A stretch of 58,690 bases of DNA from Labilibaculum sp. (GTDB taxonomy: Bacteria; Bacteroidota; Bacteroidia; Bacteroidales; Marinifilaceae). Made by a program: the position numbers and the translations under genes. Every line of letters begins with the position of its first letter. Position 1 is the stretch's first letter. The stretch lies in assembly GCA_032125735.1 (NCBI GenBank), contig JAQBBZ010000051.1:1-58690 (forward strand). Reading direction: 5' to 3'. Under the pieces are notes generated by a model. The model had not been told where the DNA came from. It saw only the letters and a list, made by a program, of their open reading frames with translations, and made no database searches. Shown piece by piece: positions 37,965 through 47,893 of the stretch.

Positions 37965-38966
37965 TTAAAGCTTGTCGATTATCCTAATACTCTCAGCCAA
38001 AAGTTGATCTTTGTTTATTGGAACAACTACGGGGATTTCGCAAACAATTCCTCCTGCCAAGTTCGATATTGCTGCAATTTCTCTTGCACTCATACCAGCT
38101 GCTAAACACAAGGTAGCTACGCTAATAACAGTATCTCCAGCTCCCGAAACATCAGCAATTTGCCTTACTACGGCAGGAATGTGTTCATATGTTTTTTCAT
38201 TACTGATAAAAACACCCAACTCAGATAATGTGATGAATAGTTTTTTAATGCCCATTTCATTTTGAAACTTTTTAGCTTCATCAAATAATCCTTGAATATC
38301 TCCTTTCTCAAGAAGAAGATTGGAACCTTCTACGAATTCTTTGAAATTTGGTTTGAAAAGGCTTACATTTTTATAATCGTTGTAATGACGCTTTTTAGGA
38401 TCGACAGCTACAGGAATTGCTTTTTTATTAGCAAGATCGGTAATTTCCTCAATCAGATTTTTTGTGATCACACCTTTGTCGTAATCTTCAAAAATTATCG
38501 CATGAATCTCATGTTTATCGACTAAACTTTTAATGTGATCAATGAATTCAATCTCTATTTCATCAGCCAATTCATGAGTATCTTCTTCATCAACCCGAAT
38601 AAGGTGTTGATTGTTGCTAATGAAGCGGGTTTTTACCGTTGTTTTGCGTTTGTTGCTAACAACTATTCCATATTGTTCTTCTTGTATCTCTGTTAAAAGA
38701 TTTAGAAATTCCTTTCCTTTTTCATCGTCCCCAATCACCGAACATAGAATAGGATTTGCCCCTAACGATTTGATATTTAGAGCCACATTTGCCGCTCCGC
38801 CTAATCTGCTTTCGCGCCTAACGCAAGAAACAATTGGTACCGGAGCTTCTGGTGATATTCGATCTACTTTACCCCAAACATAAGCGTCGACCATAACGTC
38901 GCCAATAATTAACACATTAAATTTGGAGAAGGACTTGAAGATTTGTTCTAATTCAATTTTATTCAC
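37965..38966 (-). CDS. PfkB-family kinase, heptose-7-phosphate kinase (RfaE domain I / HldA-like)
   Basis: RISPEAPVP, GGAANVA, DYDKG, VDPK, PNFKE and DVSGAGDTV motifs; no adenylyltransferase domain. Confidence 0.88.
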   Translation of the reverse strand: MNKIELEQIFKSFSKFNVLIIGDVMVDAYVWGKVDRISPEAPVPIVSCVRRESRLGGAANVALNIKSLGANPILCSVIGDDEKGKEFLNLLTEIQEEQYGIVVSNKRKTTVKTRFISNNQHLIRVDEEDTHELADEIEIEFIDHIKSLVDKHEIHAIIFEDYDKGVITKNLIEEITDLANKKAIPVAVDPKKRHYNDYKNVSLFKPNFKEFVEGSNLLLEKGDIQGLFDEAKKFQNEMGIKKLFITLSELGVFISNEKTYEHIPAVVRQIADVSGAGDTVISVATLCLAAGMSAREIAAISNLAGGIVCEIPVVVPINKDQLLAESIRIIDKL

Positions 38967-39260
38967 TATTTCCTGGTTTTTGAATTATGCTAGCAAAGAT
39001 AAACAAATTCGCGTGTTAGCGAATTTTAAGTACATCCCTTATGCATTTTTAACACTTATATAAAACTTTTAAGCCTTGGGAAACTCGTGTTTTCGTTGAT
39101 GTGCTTGTGCAGATTGTTTGAGAAGCCAGATGTTCTTATCATCTGGGAAATTGGGCTGATAATGGTTTGAAGCACTTGGTTTATGATGCACTTCGTGATG
39201 GCTTTGTAGTAAAAGCCTCTGTGTTTTTTATCGAATTAACTTATTTTTTTTTAAAAACCT

Positions 39261-39652
39261 TAAGAAGCTGTTTAAATTTGTTTTTTTTAATTTTTAGCGA
39301 AGAGAAAAGATTAGTAATGCATTAGATTTGATGCGTGTAGTGGTTCTGCTTAAAGATACTTTAACGCAGTAATGCTGCTTTTAGCTTGAGGAAAAGGATA
39401 AATTTAAAAACAGTTTCCTGGCTTAGTGGCGTTTTTGGTGATATCAGTAAAGCTTTGTTGAATTCATTAAAACCTTTGGTAAAAAGACGAAAGATTTACT
39501 GAATTTATCAAAGCTTTCGTAAAATAATGAAAGCTTTTAATAAAATTACCAAAGCTTTCGTAAAACCAGTTAAGCCTTTGATAAAAAGGTCAAAGCTTTA
39601 CTGAAATAAGCAAAGTCTTAGTGAAATCATTAAATTTTTAAACAGTTTCTAA
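39261..39652. mobile_element. MITE-like non-autonomous element with terminal inverted repeats and TAA target duplication
   Basis: TAA-GAAGCTGTTTAAA (39261-39276) ... TTTAAACAGTTTC-TAA (39637-39652): 12/13 IR match with TAA on both flanks. A third degenerate IR copy is at about 39400-39418. No transposase. Confidence 0.6.
39449..39639. repeat. Array of about ten 20/21-nt units, consensus AAAGCTTT-N2-TRAA-N6
   Basis: Units start at 39449, 39470, 39490, 39510, 39530, 39551, 39572, 39592, 39612 and (degenerate) 39632. Confidence 0.85.
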
Positions 39653-39745
39653 TTCTTTACGCTTTTTGCTTACTGTATTTAGTAAAAAGTTTATGAGGAG
39701 TAAATAACTTAGCGATTGATGTTTTCTGGATTGTACAAAGCGTTT

Positions 39746-42220
39746 TTACATCGGATCCACATCAAAATTCACTTGAATGGATTTAAATTGATCCATGCTT
39801 TTTAAATGATTTGCGTGTTGATTTAAAATCCATTTGGCTTTCGCAGGTGAACTTTTCTTTTCTATTTTTAAAAGAATATTAACGATGTAAAAGTTTTGAA
39901 TTCGATTAATAACAGGCGATTGAGGGCCAATTATACGAATGCCAAAAACTTTACGTAATGATCTGGCAAGGATTTCCGCGGCCTGATTCATTAATGTTTG
40001 ATTTTTGTGTTTCAAGCAGATGTTGATCAATCGATAGTAGGGTGGATAATAATATTCTTTTCTTTCTGCTAATTGATCATTATACATGGAGACATAATCG
40101 TTGCCAATTACATTTTTAATGATCGGGTGCTCTGGAGTGTAAGTTTGAATCAACACTTTTCCTCTTTTCTTTTTTCGGCCAGCACGACCAGAAACCTGAG
40201 CCATCATCTGAAAGCTGCGCTCGTAGGCGCGGTAATCCGGATAATTAAGCATCGAGTCGGCATTTAAAACACCAACTAAACTTACATTATCAAAATCGAG
40301 ACCTTTCGAAACCATCTGTGTGCCCACTAAAATATCGAGTTCATTGTTTTCGAATTTGTAAATGAGCTTTTCGTAGGCCATCTTTTTTCGAGTGGTATCC
40401 AAATCCATTCGTGCAATTCGTGCATCAGGAAAGAAGCCCGTTAATTCCTCTTCAATTTTTTCTGTTCCAAATCCTCTGTCTTCAATTTCGGTTGAGCTGC
40501 AATGCTCACAACTTGTTGGCGGATGAATATTGTGTGCACAGTAATGGCAAACCAATTGATTGTTGTATCGATGATAAGTTAGGCTAACCGAGCAGTTTGG
40601 ACAATGAGGAACCCATCCACAGCTTTTGCATTCCAAATAGGGAGAATATCCTCTTCTGTTCTGAAATAAAATAATTTGTTCCTTATTCTCCAGGCAATTC
40701 TCCATCATTTGCATGAGTTGAGGAGAGAACATGGATTTCATCTGTTTTTTTCGCGTTGCTTCTTTTATATCAGCAATAATTATTTCGGGCATTTCCAAAT
40801 TTTGGTGTCGCTGAAATAATTCGACCAAACCATACTTACCTGTTTTTGCATTGAAGTAAGTTTCTATTGCCGGTGTAGCAGTACCCAATAAGGTTTTTGC
40901 CTGATGCAGATGAGCCAGATAAAGAGAAGCATCGCGTGCATGATATCTGGGTGCCGGATCAAATTGTTTGTAAGTGGTTTCGTGCTCTTCATCAACAATA
41001 ATCAAACCTAAGTTTTTAAAAGGAAGGAATATTGATGATCGAACCCCAAGAATAACCTGATAGGCATTTTCAGGATCATTCTGATTGATGTTGTTGTAGA
41101 TTTCTACGCGTTCCGCATCGTTAAATTTAGAATGATAGATTCCTACTTTATTTCCAAATACAGTTCGTAAGCGGTTAATGATTTGAGTTGTTAGAGCAAT
41201 TTCGGGCAGAAGGTAAAGAACCTGTTTGCCCTGTTGCAATTGCTCTTGAATCAAATGAATGTAGATCTCGGTTTTACCGCTCGAAGTTACTCCATGCAAC
41301 AGTACACAATTCTTTTCCTCGAAATGCTTCCGTGTTTCAGTAATTGCTTTTTGTTGGTACTTATTCAATTCCTTAAGTCCCGAAGTTTCCGTTTGAGAAA
41401 GATCAATTCGATCCAGTTTCTCATGATAAATTTCAAGAATATTTTTTTCGATTAAACCTCTTAAAATTCCTTTCGATAGATCAACAGATTTTAGAAGTTT
41501 CATCACCGACACTTTCTGAGGAATTTCTTCGAAATAGTGTTTGGAAAGATTGAGGTAGGAGAGAAGAATCTCCTGTTGTTTCTTAGCTCTTTTTAAGCTG
41601 TCAATTAGTTCGCCAATTTCTGTTTCAGTGAAATCAGATGCCAGGCGAACAAATTCCTTCTTTTTCTCTTTGTAGGTGTTGATGATTTGTTCTTCGATAG
41701 AAACAGCTCCTTTTTCAAGCAATGCTTTTACTTGAGGGAGCGTATTTTTTAGTCCTGTTGCCTGATTTAAGGTGGAAATGCTTACATCTTTTGAATGCTT
41801 TAGTACATTCAGAATTTGTTCCTCGGTTTTGCTCAGAGTTTCTTGTGCCTGAAAATCTTCATTGGCAGTTATCTTGGTCTGGCTTTCCAACTTTAATCCG
41901 GAAGGGAGAGCCGCCTTAAAAACATCACCTATTGTACACTGATAGTATTGTGAAATCCAATCCCAAAAATTGAATTGAAAGGAATTAATAATTGGAAATT
42001 CATCCAGACAAGTAATAATGTCTTTGGTTGAATAATCCGTTGGAGGAGTATTGTGAATGCTTTTTACAATCGCAGTGTAGAATTTTTTACTGCCGAAAGG
42101 AACAACTACCCTTTTTCCAATGGCCACATCAGCTTTCAATTCCTCTGGAATAGAGTAGGTAAAAAGCTGGGCCAATGGAAGTGGCAGTATGATATCTGCA
42201 AATTCGGTAGTCTTGTTCAT
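39746..42220 (-). CDS. priA: Primosomal protein N' (replication restart helicase)
   Basis: GVTSSGKT, DEEH, four CxxC and QVSGRAGR motifs. ATG at 42220 supported by TAACTTTG at 42239-42246. Confidence 0.96.
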   Translation of the reverse strand: MNKTTEFADIILPLPLAQLFTYSIPEELKADVAIGKRVVVPFGSKKFYTAIVKSIHNTPPTDYSTKDIITCLDEFPIINSFQFNFWDWISQYYQCTIGDVFKAALPSGLKLESQTKITANEDFQAQETLSKTEEQILNVLKHSKDVSISTLNQATGLKNTLPQVKALLEKGAVSIEEQIINTYKEKKKEFVRLASDFTETEIGELIDSLKRAKKQQEILLSYLNLSKHYFEEIPQKVSVMKLLKSVDLSKGILRGLIEKNILEIYHEKLDRIDLSQTETSGLKELNKYQQKAITETRKHFEEKNCVLLHGVTSSGKTEIYIHLIQEQLQQGKQVLYLLPEIALTTQIINRLRTVFGNKVGIYHSKFNDAERVEIYNNINQNDPENAYQVILGVRSSIFLPFKNLGLIIVDEEHETTYKQFDPAPRYHARDASLYLAHLHQAKTLLGTATPAIETYFNAKTGKYGLVELFQRHQNLEMPEIIIADIKEATRKKQMKSMFSPQLMQMMENCLENKEQIILFQNRRGYSPYLECKSCGWVPHCPNCSVSLTYHRYNNQLVCHYCAHNIHPPTSCEHCSSTEIEDRGFGTEKIEEELTGFFPDARIARMDLDTTRKKMAYEKLIYKFENNELDILVGTQMVSKGLDFDNVSLVGVLNADSMLNYPDYRAYERSFQMMAQVSGRAGRKKKRGKVLIQTYTPEHPIIKNVIGNDYVSMYNDQLAERKEYYYPPYYRLINICLKHKNQTLMNQAAEILARSLRKVFGIRIIGPQSPVINRIQNFYIVNILLKIEKKSSPAKAKWILNQHANHLKSMDQFKSIQVNFDVDPM

Positions 42221-42332
42221 TAAAGTGTGTATTTTGCTCAAAGTTATGAGTTCTGATTAGAATCTCATCATTTGGGCATTAATTCCTGACAGGAAAAATA
42301 AGCATGAACAAAAACCACCGTTCTCGGATAAT

Positions 42333-44180
42333 TTAGATAGAAAGAATATCGTTGAGACTCAATAGAGAATCCTTCACTTTCTTTTTATTTTTAATTGCTT
42401 TGTTGAATGAAACATGCGAAACTTCACCGTTTACCATTCCTACCATGATACTCTTCTGATCATCCAGTAATGCATCAACTGCAGCAACACCTAAAGTAGA
42501 AGCCGTAACACGGTCGAAAGCCGATGGAGAACCACCTCTTTGCATGTGACCTAATACGGAAACACGGATATCGTATTCAGGATGTTCTTTCCCAATTTCC
42601 TGAGCAATTGTATAAGCTCCACCAGATTTATCACCTTCGGCTACAATTACAATACCACTCGATTTGTGTTCTTTGTACCCTTTTTCAAGGTATCTTTGCA
42701 GATCTTGAGTATGAGTTTCTCTTTCAGGAATCAAAATGGCTTCCGCTCCTGTAGCAATACCACTTCGTAAAGCAATAAAACCAGCATCACGTCCCATTAC
42801 TTCAATAAAGAATAAACGGTTGTGAGCACTCGCAGTATCACGTATCTTATCAACAGCTTCAATTACAGTATTGATAGCTGTATCGTAACCAATGGTATAA
42901 TCAGTCCCGTACAAATCATTGTCGATAGTCCCCGGAATTCCCACTACAGGGATATCATATTCCTGAGTAAAAATACGTGCTCCTGAAAATGTTCCATCTC
43001 CACCAATAACAACAAGAGCATCTATTTTGTTGGCAATCATTTGCTCGTGTGCTTTTTTTCTGCCCTCTACGGTTCTAAATTCATTACTTCTGGCCGAACG
43101 AAGAATAGTTCCTCCTCTTTGAATAATGTTGCTTACATCATGAGATTTCATTTTTTTGAATTCACCATTAATTAAGCCTTCGTATCCTTGCATTATACCT
43201 ACAACGTCAAGTTTGTTGTAGATAGCAGCACGTACAACAGCTCTGATGGCTGCATTCATTCCCGGAGCATCGCCTCCTGAAGTTAGAACTCCAATTTTCT
43301 TAATTTTAGACATGCTTAAATCGCTTTTGTTTTCAAGTTTTATTTTTTCCATTGTTTCATTCATCAGCCAGGTGGGAGTAGATGTTGCTCCACTTACACC
43401 AACCGAATTTGCGTTTAGAAACCAATCCATGTTCAGTTCATCAGGGCAAGTGATAAAGTGGCTGTTTTGATTTGTTTTTTTACATACGTCGAACAGCAAT
43501 TTTCCATTCGAACTCTTTTCCCCACTTACAAATATGATCACATCGTGTTTTTTGGCAAATTCCTCCAATAGAGGAACACGATTTGATACCTTTCGGCAAA
43601 TGGTGTCGTTGATATTAAGACTACTTTTGCATTTTTTTTTCAGATATTCTGAAATTTCAGCAAAGCCAGTAATCGTTTTTGTTGTCTGTGAAAACAATAC
43701 AACAGGTAAGTTGAAATTCACCAATTTCAGATCTTCTGTGTTTTCAACAACAATTGCTTTGCCTTCGGTTTGACCTACCAGACCGTTTACCTCTGCATGA
43801 CCTTTTTTGCCGTATATTATTATTTGTCCGTTTGATTCCAGAATCTCGCGGTACGCTTTTTTTATTTTTTTCTGCAAGTTTAAAACTACAGGACAAGAAG
43901 CATCAATAACTTCGATGTTTTGCTTTTTGGCAATTTCATAGGAGATAGGAGGCTCCCCATGTGCTCGAAATAAAACTTTTTTTCCTGATAATTTCGAAAA
44001 CTGATCGTGATTGATTGATTTTAATCCCTGAGCAGTAAGACGATCCACTTCAAGATTGTTGTGAACGATGTCACCAATACAGTAGAGTCGATTTTCCTCT
44101 TTCAGTATTTCTTCTGCTTTATTTATGGCATTTACTACACCAAAGCAGAATCCAGCGTTCGAATCTATTTCAATCTTCAT
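42333..44180 (-). CDS. ispH-pfkA: In-frame fusion of 4-hydroxy-3-methylbut-2-enyl diphosphate reductase (aa 1-289) and ATP-dependent 6-phosphofructokinase (from Met at 43313)
   Basis: IspH motifs GFCFGV, DASCP, DTIC, SSN, GATSTP. PfkA motifs TSGGDAPGMN, GGDGT, GTIDND, EVMGR. No stop at the junction. Confidence 0.9.
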   Translation of the reverse strand: MKIEIDSNAGFCFGVVNAINKAEEILKEENRLYCIGDIVHNNLEVDRLTAQGLKSINHDQFSKLSGKKVLFRAHGEPPISYEIAKKQNIEVIDASCPVVLNLQKKIKKAYREILESNGQIIIYGKKGHAEVNGLVGQTEGKAIVVENTEDLKLVNFNLPVVLFSQTTKTITGFAEISEYLKKKCKSSLNINDTICRKVSNRVPLLEEFAKKHDVIIFVSGEKSSNGKLLFDVCKKTNQNSHFITCPDELNMDWFLNANSVGVSGATSTPTWLMNETMEKIKLENKSDLSMSKIKKIGVLTSGGDAPGMNAAIRAVVRAAIYNKLDVVGIMQGYEGLINGEFKKMKSHDVSNIIQRGGTILRSARSNEFRTVEGRKKAHEQMIANKIDALVVIGGDGTFSGARIFTQEYDIPVVGIPGTIDNDLYGTDYTIGYDTAINTVIEAVDKIRDTASAHNRLFFIEVMGRDAGFIALRSGIATGAEAILIPERETHTQDLQRYLEKGYKEHKSSGIVIVAEGDKSGGAYTIAQEIGKEHPEYDIRVSVLGHMQRGGSPSAFDRVTASTLGVAAVDALLDDQKSIMVGMVNGEVSHVSFNKAIKNKKKVKDSLLSLNDILSI

Positions 44181-47086: not shown

Positions 47087-47893
47087 ATGAATATTAAAAA
47101 ACTTTTTCCGATACTTGGTATAGCAGTTATTGCGTTAACAGTAGGTTGCGACAAAGATGATTCGATCGACACCAATACCAATACTGATAATCCAATAATA
47201 ATTCCGATTCAAACAACAGTACAAACTGCTGTAAACCTTAGGTCAGCCGGCGATTATGTTATTTTAGCTGGTTCCGGTATCTCAAATGTACCCGCCTCAG
47301 AAATTACAGGGAATATTGGGTTAAGCCCTGCTGCTGGGTCTTTCCTAACAGGATTTTCAGAAACACTTCCAGTTGGAGGAGCTTCTTCAGTATCTGCTCA
47401 AGTGACTGGCGGTTTGTTTGCATCCAATTATGCGGTTCCAACTCCTTCTAACTTAACAACAGCTAAAGGTGATTTAACTACTGCATACAACGATGCTGCA
47501 GGAAGAACCAGCACTGATATAGTGCTTTTAGCAGGAAATATTGGTGGACTAACATTAGCACCTGGTCTTTACAAATCAAATGGTGCACTTGAAATATCAT
47601 CAGGCAACCTTACTTTTGATGCAAAGGGAGATGCCAGTGCGGTATTTATTATTCAGATAGCATCTACATTAACAACAACATCCGGACGTCAGGTTATTCT
47701 TAGTGGAGGAGCCTTAGCATCGAACATTTTTTGGCAGGTGGGTACTTCAGCTACTATTGGAACCACCTCAATATTCAAAGGAATCATTATGGCTGATCAA
47801 TCAATATCATTAAATACAGGAGCAACTGTTAATGGTAGATTGTTAGCAAGAATAGGTGAGATAACCTTAGAAGGAAACACAATTAGTCAATAA
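47087..47893 (+). CDS. DUF3494 ice-binding lipoprotein
   Basis: Lipobox LTVGC followed by DKDD. DUF3494 motifs VNLRSAGDYVILA, TGNIGLSP, AYNDAAGR, TLAPGLYK, FIIQI, NIFWQV and GRLLA. Confidence 0.92.
   Translation: MNIKKLFPILGIAVIALTVGCDKDDSIDTNTNTDNPIIIPIQTTVQTAVNLRSAGDYVILAGSGISNVPASEITGNIGLSPAAGSFLTGFSETLPVGGASSVSAQVTGGLFASNYAVPTPSNLTTAKGDLTTAYNDAAGRTSTDIVLLAGNIGGLTLAPGLYKSNGALEISSGNLTFDAKGDASAVFIIQIASTLTTTSGRQVILSGGALASNIFWQVGTSATIGTTSIFKGIIMADQSISLNTGATVNGRLLARIGEITLEGNTISQ

Follow-up and report, generated by a model that had tools for sequence, protein, structure and literature searches.

A nine-unit 20/21-bp array within a composite IS5-type miniature element of Labilibaculum, and related arrays beside small-gene families

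Arrays of repeats bound by small proteins are familiar from the centromeres and operators of plasmids (R388 StbA/stbDR, pSK1 Par, ParR/parC and TubR/tubC). In REP/RAYT systems a gene is flanked by its own repeat type, of which orphan copies lie across the genome, and type III toxin–antitoxin loci are laid out in the order array, terminator, toxin gene. Within the IS5 family of insertion sequences, a 3-bp TWA target is the mark of the IS1031 group. Miniature elements (MITEs) with IS5-family terminal inverted repeats (TIRs) that enclose imperfect tandem repeats have been described from Porphyromonas gingivalis as BrickBuilt and MITE464/PgRS; in the available part of that report the repeat measures 23 nt, or 41 nt in PgRS (PMC4596501). 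The combination of a MITE with a minisatellite is therefore of an already known kind. For TIGR-Tas, VIPR and CRISPR arrays, periods of 18, 5 and 60–79 nt (also 10, 8 and 7 nt) are given in an entropy-based array survey, the available main text of which names no 20–21-nt class (bioRxiv 10.64898/2026.10.21.760802). As far as the same text describes it, the survey discarded clusters that had a period that was a multiple of 3 together with a lag-3 peak, and this filter might have hidden 21-nt arrays. No prior description of gene-coupled 20–21-bp arrays was found in the literature searched, which lacked most subscription papers.

The window, i.e. the whole stretch of DNA that was analysed (58,690 nt), belongs to a Labilibaculum genome designated G000, of which C51, C64, C261 and C367 are contigs. 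The array is flanked by priA and the gene for a PfkB-family kinase; parA and parB lie farther out. The features are as follows.

37965..38966, − strand: PfkB-family kinase, flanking host gene (Pfam PF00294), which we take to be 'rfaE-like'
39261..39263, + strand: left target-site duplication, TAA (from the sequence; flanks without the element align continuously with genome G002)
39264..39279, + strand: left TIR, IS5-type (the same motif adjoins IS5-family transposases at loci L199 and L228)
39264..39417, + strand: simple MITE body, about 155 bp, with an internal right TIR at 39400–39417 (four other near-full copies in G000; many in relatives)
39423..39448, + strand: degenerate first unit, the start of which may be a decayed left TIR, to judge by resemblance (alignment of four copies)
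39449..39631, no strand assigned: nine 20/21-bp units, each a dyad site A-NN-AAAGCTTT-NN-T plus an A-rich spacer (chain scan; 75% match to the C64 array)
39632..39649, + strand: right TIR of the composite (repeat family D12; paired-TIR comparison)
39650..39652, + strand: right target-site duplication, TAA (from the sequence)
39746..42241, − strand: priA, flanking host gene (Pfam PriA domains)

The stretches at 39060–39260 and 39653–39745 form an accessory segment common to only G002 and G006 among the genomes examined; in these two it runs on into a different 21/42-bp array, which has apparently been mostly deleted in the window. Beyond priA, a single 615-aa open reading frame (42333–44180, − strand) is a fusion of IspH (LytB) and 6-phosphofructokinase, the junction of which is open in frame in all five relatives tested (616–623 aa), and an ice-binding-like protein (PF11999, E = 3e-72) is encoded at 47087–47893 on the + strand.

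The nine units start at 39449, 39470, 39490, 39510, 39530, 39551, 39572, 39592 and 39612 and are thus spaced by 21, 20, 20, 20, 21, 21, 20 and 20 bp. When TRF was run on the window, periods of 21 and 41 for this array gave the top scores among 29 rows. Chains of at least four units were found four times in the real genome (one each on C51, C64 and C367; the fourth, on C261, is unrelated) and not once under the same rule in a 4.27-Mb order-3 Markov simulation. The longest stop-free frame across the array is 45 aa. The array is thus confirmed as real, and the sequence-only reading of this DNA, which had written out the same nine units with mixed 20/21 spacing and had called them non-coding, was right on both counts. 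Its further 'degenerate unit' at 39632 is actually the right TIR of the MITE.

The composite element measures 386 bp (39264–39649) and is flanked on both sides by TAA. It has paired TIRs, a target-site duplication with a matching empty site, dispersed copies and no coding capacity, and it shares its TIR with autonomous IS5 elements of other Bacteroidota, since the TIR adjoins IS5 transposases (NF033580, NF033578) at two loci, L199 and L228. The intergenic DNA around the array matched 14 of 41 genomes, and it did so as two pieces: a repeat of about 160 bp with inverted ends, with about ten matches per genome in three relatives, and the array itself together with a further right end that comes after it. 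The element is absent from the priA site in all ten relatives examined, and the empty-site alignment with G002 is continuous across the flanks. A copy of the composite at G006:100.4 kb has TTA on both sides and an internal deletion; another insertion, with TTA ends, is common to G006:997.6 kb and C367, and the C367 copy is probably a deletion derivative of it. Because these two represent one insertion, the copies occupy three sites and not four. Among the four copies the linkers are 90–95% identical in register, with biased third and third-last bases and a biased central A-run, so the linkers are not 'free', as they had been called. The TIR pattern was found at at least 124 loci, mostly elements of 160–200 bp, and among the 80 matches listed with titles almost all were from Bacteroidota. 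A transposase with a matching TIR was not found in G000 (three queries; genome 92% complete), G002 or G006, and G004 contains IS5, but without this TIR. An apparently greater conservation of the array half than of the MITE half shrank to 90% versus 87% on global alignment and was discarded. It is very probable that the array is cargo of an IS5-type miniature element, which likely moved it to its present site; the transposase for this, an IS5 enzyme, would have acted in trans. Other mobile DNA was seen in passing: a 1.8-kb insertion sequence with about 14 near-identical copies in G004 (L330–L333), and, across 11 genomes, an intergenic hot spot at which several sorts of small repeats and MITEs have inserted (L334–L344), presumably between genes for GH97 and a tricorn-like protease.

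On C64, about 70–110 bp downstream of a gene for a 162-aa protein and after a terminator-like hairpin, lies an array that matches the one in the window at 75% identity over 187 bp. The window array may accordingly be described as an orphan copy of a repeat type native just downstream of this gene, probably captured from such a gene-linked locus. Linker agreement between the two arrays was 0.59 in register, against 0.42–0.60 off register, i.e. the register is lost; as it stands at 0.90–0.95 among the composites, core and spacing outlast the linkers. Scanning the genome and its relatives for genes that accompany other copies, as had been proposed, thus led to a small helical gene family as the home of the repeat; this family and the enclosing MITE had both been missed when the letters alone were read. 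The presence of the array at the priA site is likely incidental; at the most, it could act there as a decoy for the C64 protein.

The 162-aa protein (family A) had no significant match in Pfam, NCBIfam, PHROGs, PDB sequences or three fold searches; no ribbon–helix–helix (RHH) or helix–turn–helix (HTH) fold was matched either, the best hit scoring Z 6.2 (52 residues, rmsd 3.0). The predicted structure consists of helices throughout and includes one of 55 residues (pLDDT 88). Family A matches occurred in 31 of 97 genomes of the taxonomic family and in 25 of 301 of a phylum sample, with up to six matches in a single genome; a search of clusters formed at 50% identity retrieved 4,324 of them (E up to 0.001). 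Among named homologues of a linked protein, those from Labilibaculum and Marinifilum are nearest; the Atlas neighbours are all hypothetical and the gene neighbours appear unrelated on inspection. Conserved residues are R42, K47, K51, K58, Y122, K126, K130 and R146, seven of them basic; with a median pI of 5.6 (5.4 for the PQLLE family described below) the proteins are nonetheless acidic overall.

Sixty family A loci were assembled (30 from one genome search, 29 of the 30 from a second, with the C64 duplicate omitted, and one more); some of the loci are kin, and in three the gene is broken. A signal at 20/21 bp (z >= 4) was present downstream of 32 of the 60 and upstream of two; in the 20–22-bp band these counts were 35 and two, and in the control bands of 16–18 and 23–25 bp they were zero on both sides. 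The background for the 20/21-bp signal was 49 of 649 intergenic regions of G000, and 25 of the 60 loci remained under the threshold. Unit sequences vary by clade and the period is constant, so the spacing near two helical turns that had been noted in the window holds while the units differ. The AAAGCTTT unit is found on a single branch of the protein tree (five of 26 rows, one change, support 85/94); as kin are not independent, this co-clustering may be simple co-inheritance. In G084 a AAAGCTTT array is present, although no family A gene there is closer than 37%. The empty-site search yielded few orthologues of the C64 cassette site. At L347 (G009:C38) the family A gene is broken and the array is only a short displaced remnant (z 3.8), which suggests joint decay of gene and array. 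At L144 and L145 (G083 and G081) an enlarged, homogenized AAAGCTTT array lies within the junction of two open reading frames, and no MITE ends were seen.

Coupling of this kind is not confined to family A. An unbiased period scan of the non-coding DNA of G000 gave 109 calls, of which 80 fell at 20–21.5 or 40.5–42 bp and seven at 14 bp. A targeted scan of the same genome gave 78 arrays, 76 of them non-coding, with a median of nine units and with neighbours that include PQLLE (NF052641) and DUF6261 genes. Spacings measured in 15 arrays were 20 bp (87 times), 21 bp (63) and 22 bp (four). PQLLE loci carried an array upstream in 25 of 29 cases and downstream in none (one of 30 loci gave no hit). 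Each of two small-gene families is thus coupled to a 20–22-bp array, on a side characteristic of the family. Three of the 25 PQLLE arrays (those of the genes at L101:686–1759, L116 and L118) read in frame as a low-complexity N-terminal extension. Across five helical families 16 of 32 genes in G000 had an array within 500 bp, a figure in which the counts for families C to E are circular because these families were seeded from array neighbours; for DUF6261-like genes the proportion was three of 15. Compared by hhalign, family A had no detectable homology with any of the four other families, and PQLLE proved to be internally duplicated (hhalign probability 97.9) and weakly related to family E. 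A BAR domain was considered for PQLLE and rejected, the best match (Z 9.9, rmsd 3.4, 100 residues aligned) being in the range expected of helical bundles. A recognizable DNA-binding fold was found neither in family A nor in PQLLE.

A family gene or its remnant lay within 900 bp of 19 of the 76 G000 arrays, and a TIR of the composite MITE lay near two of the 76. When similar arrays were clustered, seven of the 16 clusters held a gene-linked member together with orphans. Different arrays recur at the same intergenic site at priA in G002, G006 and G022, and two array types recur upstream of glyS. Samples of 400 kb from other genomes, taken to assess co-occurrence at the genome level, gave counts too small to judge by: two arrays in 99 gaps (G004), none in 66 (G058) and none in 75 (G107).

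In 96 linkers from nine arrays, the two flanks of the core have mirror-image base frequencies, and pairing was detected neither within the linkers (p 0.81–0.88) nor across the core (p 0.58–0.71); the base preferences are therefore dyad-symmetric without pairing. The median dyad ratio was 0.78 in family A (n = 26, dyad-like) versus 0.38 in PQLLE (n = 25, directional). Core and variable columns were compared after L040/L087, L034/L033 and L120/L127 had been left out of the totals as non-orthologous or redundant. Core constraint was strong in PQLLE (59/487 changes in core versus 168/484 in variable columns, six pairs), not significant in family A (76/565 versus 109/679, p = 0.20, seven pairs); between the four copies of the composite it was not apparent (7/72 in the core and 13/84 elsewhere). 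The helical repeat of B-DNA is about 10.5 bp, and a dyad site every 20–21 bp would fit a dimer on one face of the helix.

The reading that we tentatively prefer, at a little under an even chance, is that the array works as a double-stranded DNA platform for the protein of the neighbouring gene, with one site per two helical turns. The family A protein would bind the array on one helix face, likely as a dimer or higher oligomer, and once coated the array would most probably serve to regulate or maintain the cassette of gene and array. For this reading speak the family-specific side of the arrays in two families with control bands at zero, the locked period, the restriction of the AAAGCTTT unit to one protein clade, the mirror-image base frequencies without covariation, the core constraint in PQLLE and the conserved basic residues of family A. 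Against it stand the net acidity of both families, their lack of a recognizable DNA-binding fold, the core comparisons in family A and among the composite copies, the 25 of 60 family A loci under the threshold, the G000 arrays remote from a family gene and the array of G084. The earlier suggestion of a protein-loading platform survives in this form as the best model; the iteron or centromere role attached to it does not. A parS, iteron or origin platform serving the nearby parAB or replication is extremely unlikely: parA and parB do lie 1.5–3.2 kb from the element, but parAB and priA are conserved in relatives without the array, none of seven loose parS-like matches is on the window contig, where the 16-bp palindrome has no match at two mismatches, and no DnaA box lies at 37–43 kb. 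The link of the array to parAB was rejected, the linkage not being conserved and the site being empty in all ten relatives. Intrinsically bent DNA is only slightly less improbable; 13 A/T tracts have a phase coherence of 0.69 at 10.2 bp, but this falls to 0.33 at 10.5 bp and many arrays of the class are without A-tracts. The arrays might also be decayed coding repeats, 21 nt making a heptad, and so relics of low-complexity peptide extensions such as those of the three PQLLE genes. Of 26 family A arrays, seven have a stop-free frame where base shuffles predict 1.8 (a comparison inflated by the repeats), which points the same way; against it, the mean period is below 20.9 in 32 of 74 G000 arrays, stops interrupt all gene-strand frames in 19 of the 26 family A arrays and the window array, with its mixed spacing, has the short frame given above, and we consider this origin very unlikely.

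Two further readings carry more weight, although we hold each to be unlikely. In one, a transcribed repeated RNA would serve the helical protein as a sponge, as an array resembling a type III antitoxin or as a TIGR/VIPR-like guide through its NN positions. A fixed motif with near-random NN positions, a folding z of −5.1 on both strands and the directional, purine-rich PQLLE arrays (median 0.65 on the gene strand) speak for it. The folding score, however, follows from the palindromic units, since shuffled unit orders fold as well as the real order in 14 of 14 tests; the linkers and core do not pair, none of 20 listed Rfam matches reached the gathering score, promoter-like sites are at chance level and in family A a terminator-like hairpin stands between gene and array. 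The processed repeat RNA that had been put forward from the letters alone is thus, as a structured RNA, unsupported by the pairing and unit-shuffle tests. In the other, the array would be a neutral minisatellite without a partner, expanded by slippage and hitch-hiking in MITEs and mobile gene cassettes in the manner of BrickBuilt. This would accord with the array being MITE cargo, with higher-order duplications of 41, 62 and 83 bp in several arrays, with the weakness of the core constraint both in family A and between copies of the composite and with the orphan status of most G000 arrays; it is opposed by a period locked at 20–22 bp across unrelated unit sequences and by the opposite, family-specific gene sides in two families without detectable homology.

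A wider proposal is possible but somewhat more doubtful than the platform reading itself: Bacteroidota may have a hitherto undescribed multi-copy class of modules in which small all-helical families (family A, PQLLE, some DUF6261 and others) are each coupled on a fixed side to their own array of about nine sites at intervals of two helical turns, each protein reading its own unit and coating the array, and orphan arrays spreading the platforms. The window copy alone is a passenger; the class is large, with about 76 arrays in one genome, and gives families annotated as 'hypothetical' or DUF a concrete candidate ligand. If the module class is real, it would constitute a naturally diversified set of orthogonal protein–DNA pairs with a new fold. 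Were binding specific, the system would be a new sequence-diversified, phase-locked protein–DNA system and a source of orthogonal labels or repressors, and MITEs would be a route for moving binding platforms.

Compared with known systems, the window element resembles IS5-family MITEs in its TIR pair, 3-bp duplication, lack of an open reading frame and many copies, and differs in carrying cargo, probably captured, and a second right TIR. With REP/RAYT the arrays share a gene-linked repeat type with orphan copies throughout the genome, but there is no HUH nuclease, and the units stand in tandem at a locked period instead of forming hairpin pairs. Family A has the order gene, hairpin, array and no toxin Pfam, unlike a type III toxin–antitoxin locus. 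TIGR-Tas, VIPR and CRISPR arrays likewise alternate a fixed motif with variable bases beside a conserved protein, as far as the available text of the survey describes them, but the period here is 20–21, and when a unit is copied its variable bases go with it; the fold searches made with genes next to the present arrays gave no match to Tas, Vipr or Cas. The StbA, Par, ParR and TubR systems are alike in having a small protein gene beside phased direct repeats and suggest a similar working model, whereas the present arrays are chromosomal (no phage record and one weak plasmid record were found) and solitary, occur with several paralogues that have different units, and have neither an NTPase partner nor an RHH/HTH match. 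BrickBuilt, as described in the available part of its report, resembles the window element as an intergenic, non-coding MITE of Bacteroidota with IS5-family TIRs and common partial copies (PMC4596501). The window element differs from it in its TIR, in a 20/21-bp unit with a dyad core and in a consistent 3-bp TWA duplication, and its repeat type can be traced to a gene-linked array, whereas the same part of the BrickBuilt report mentions no partner gene (PMC4596501).
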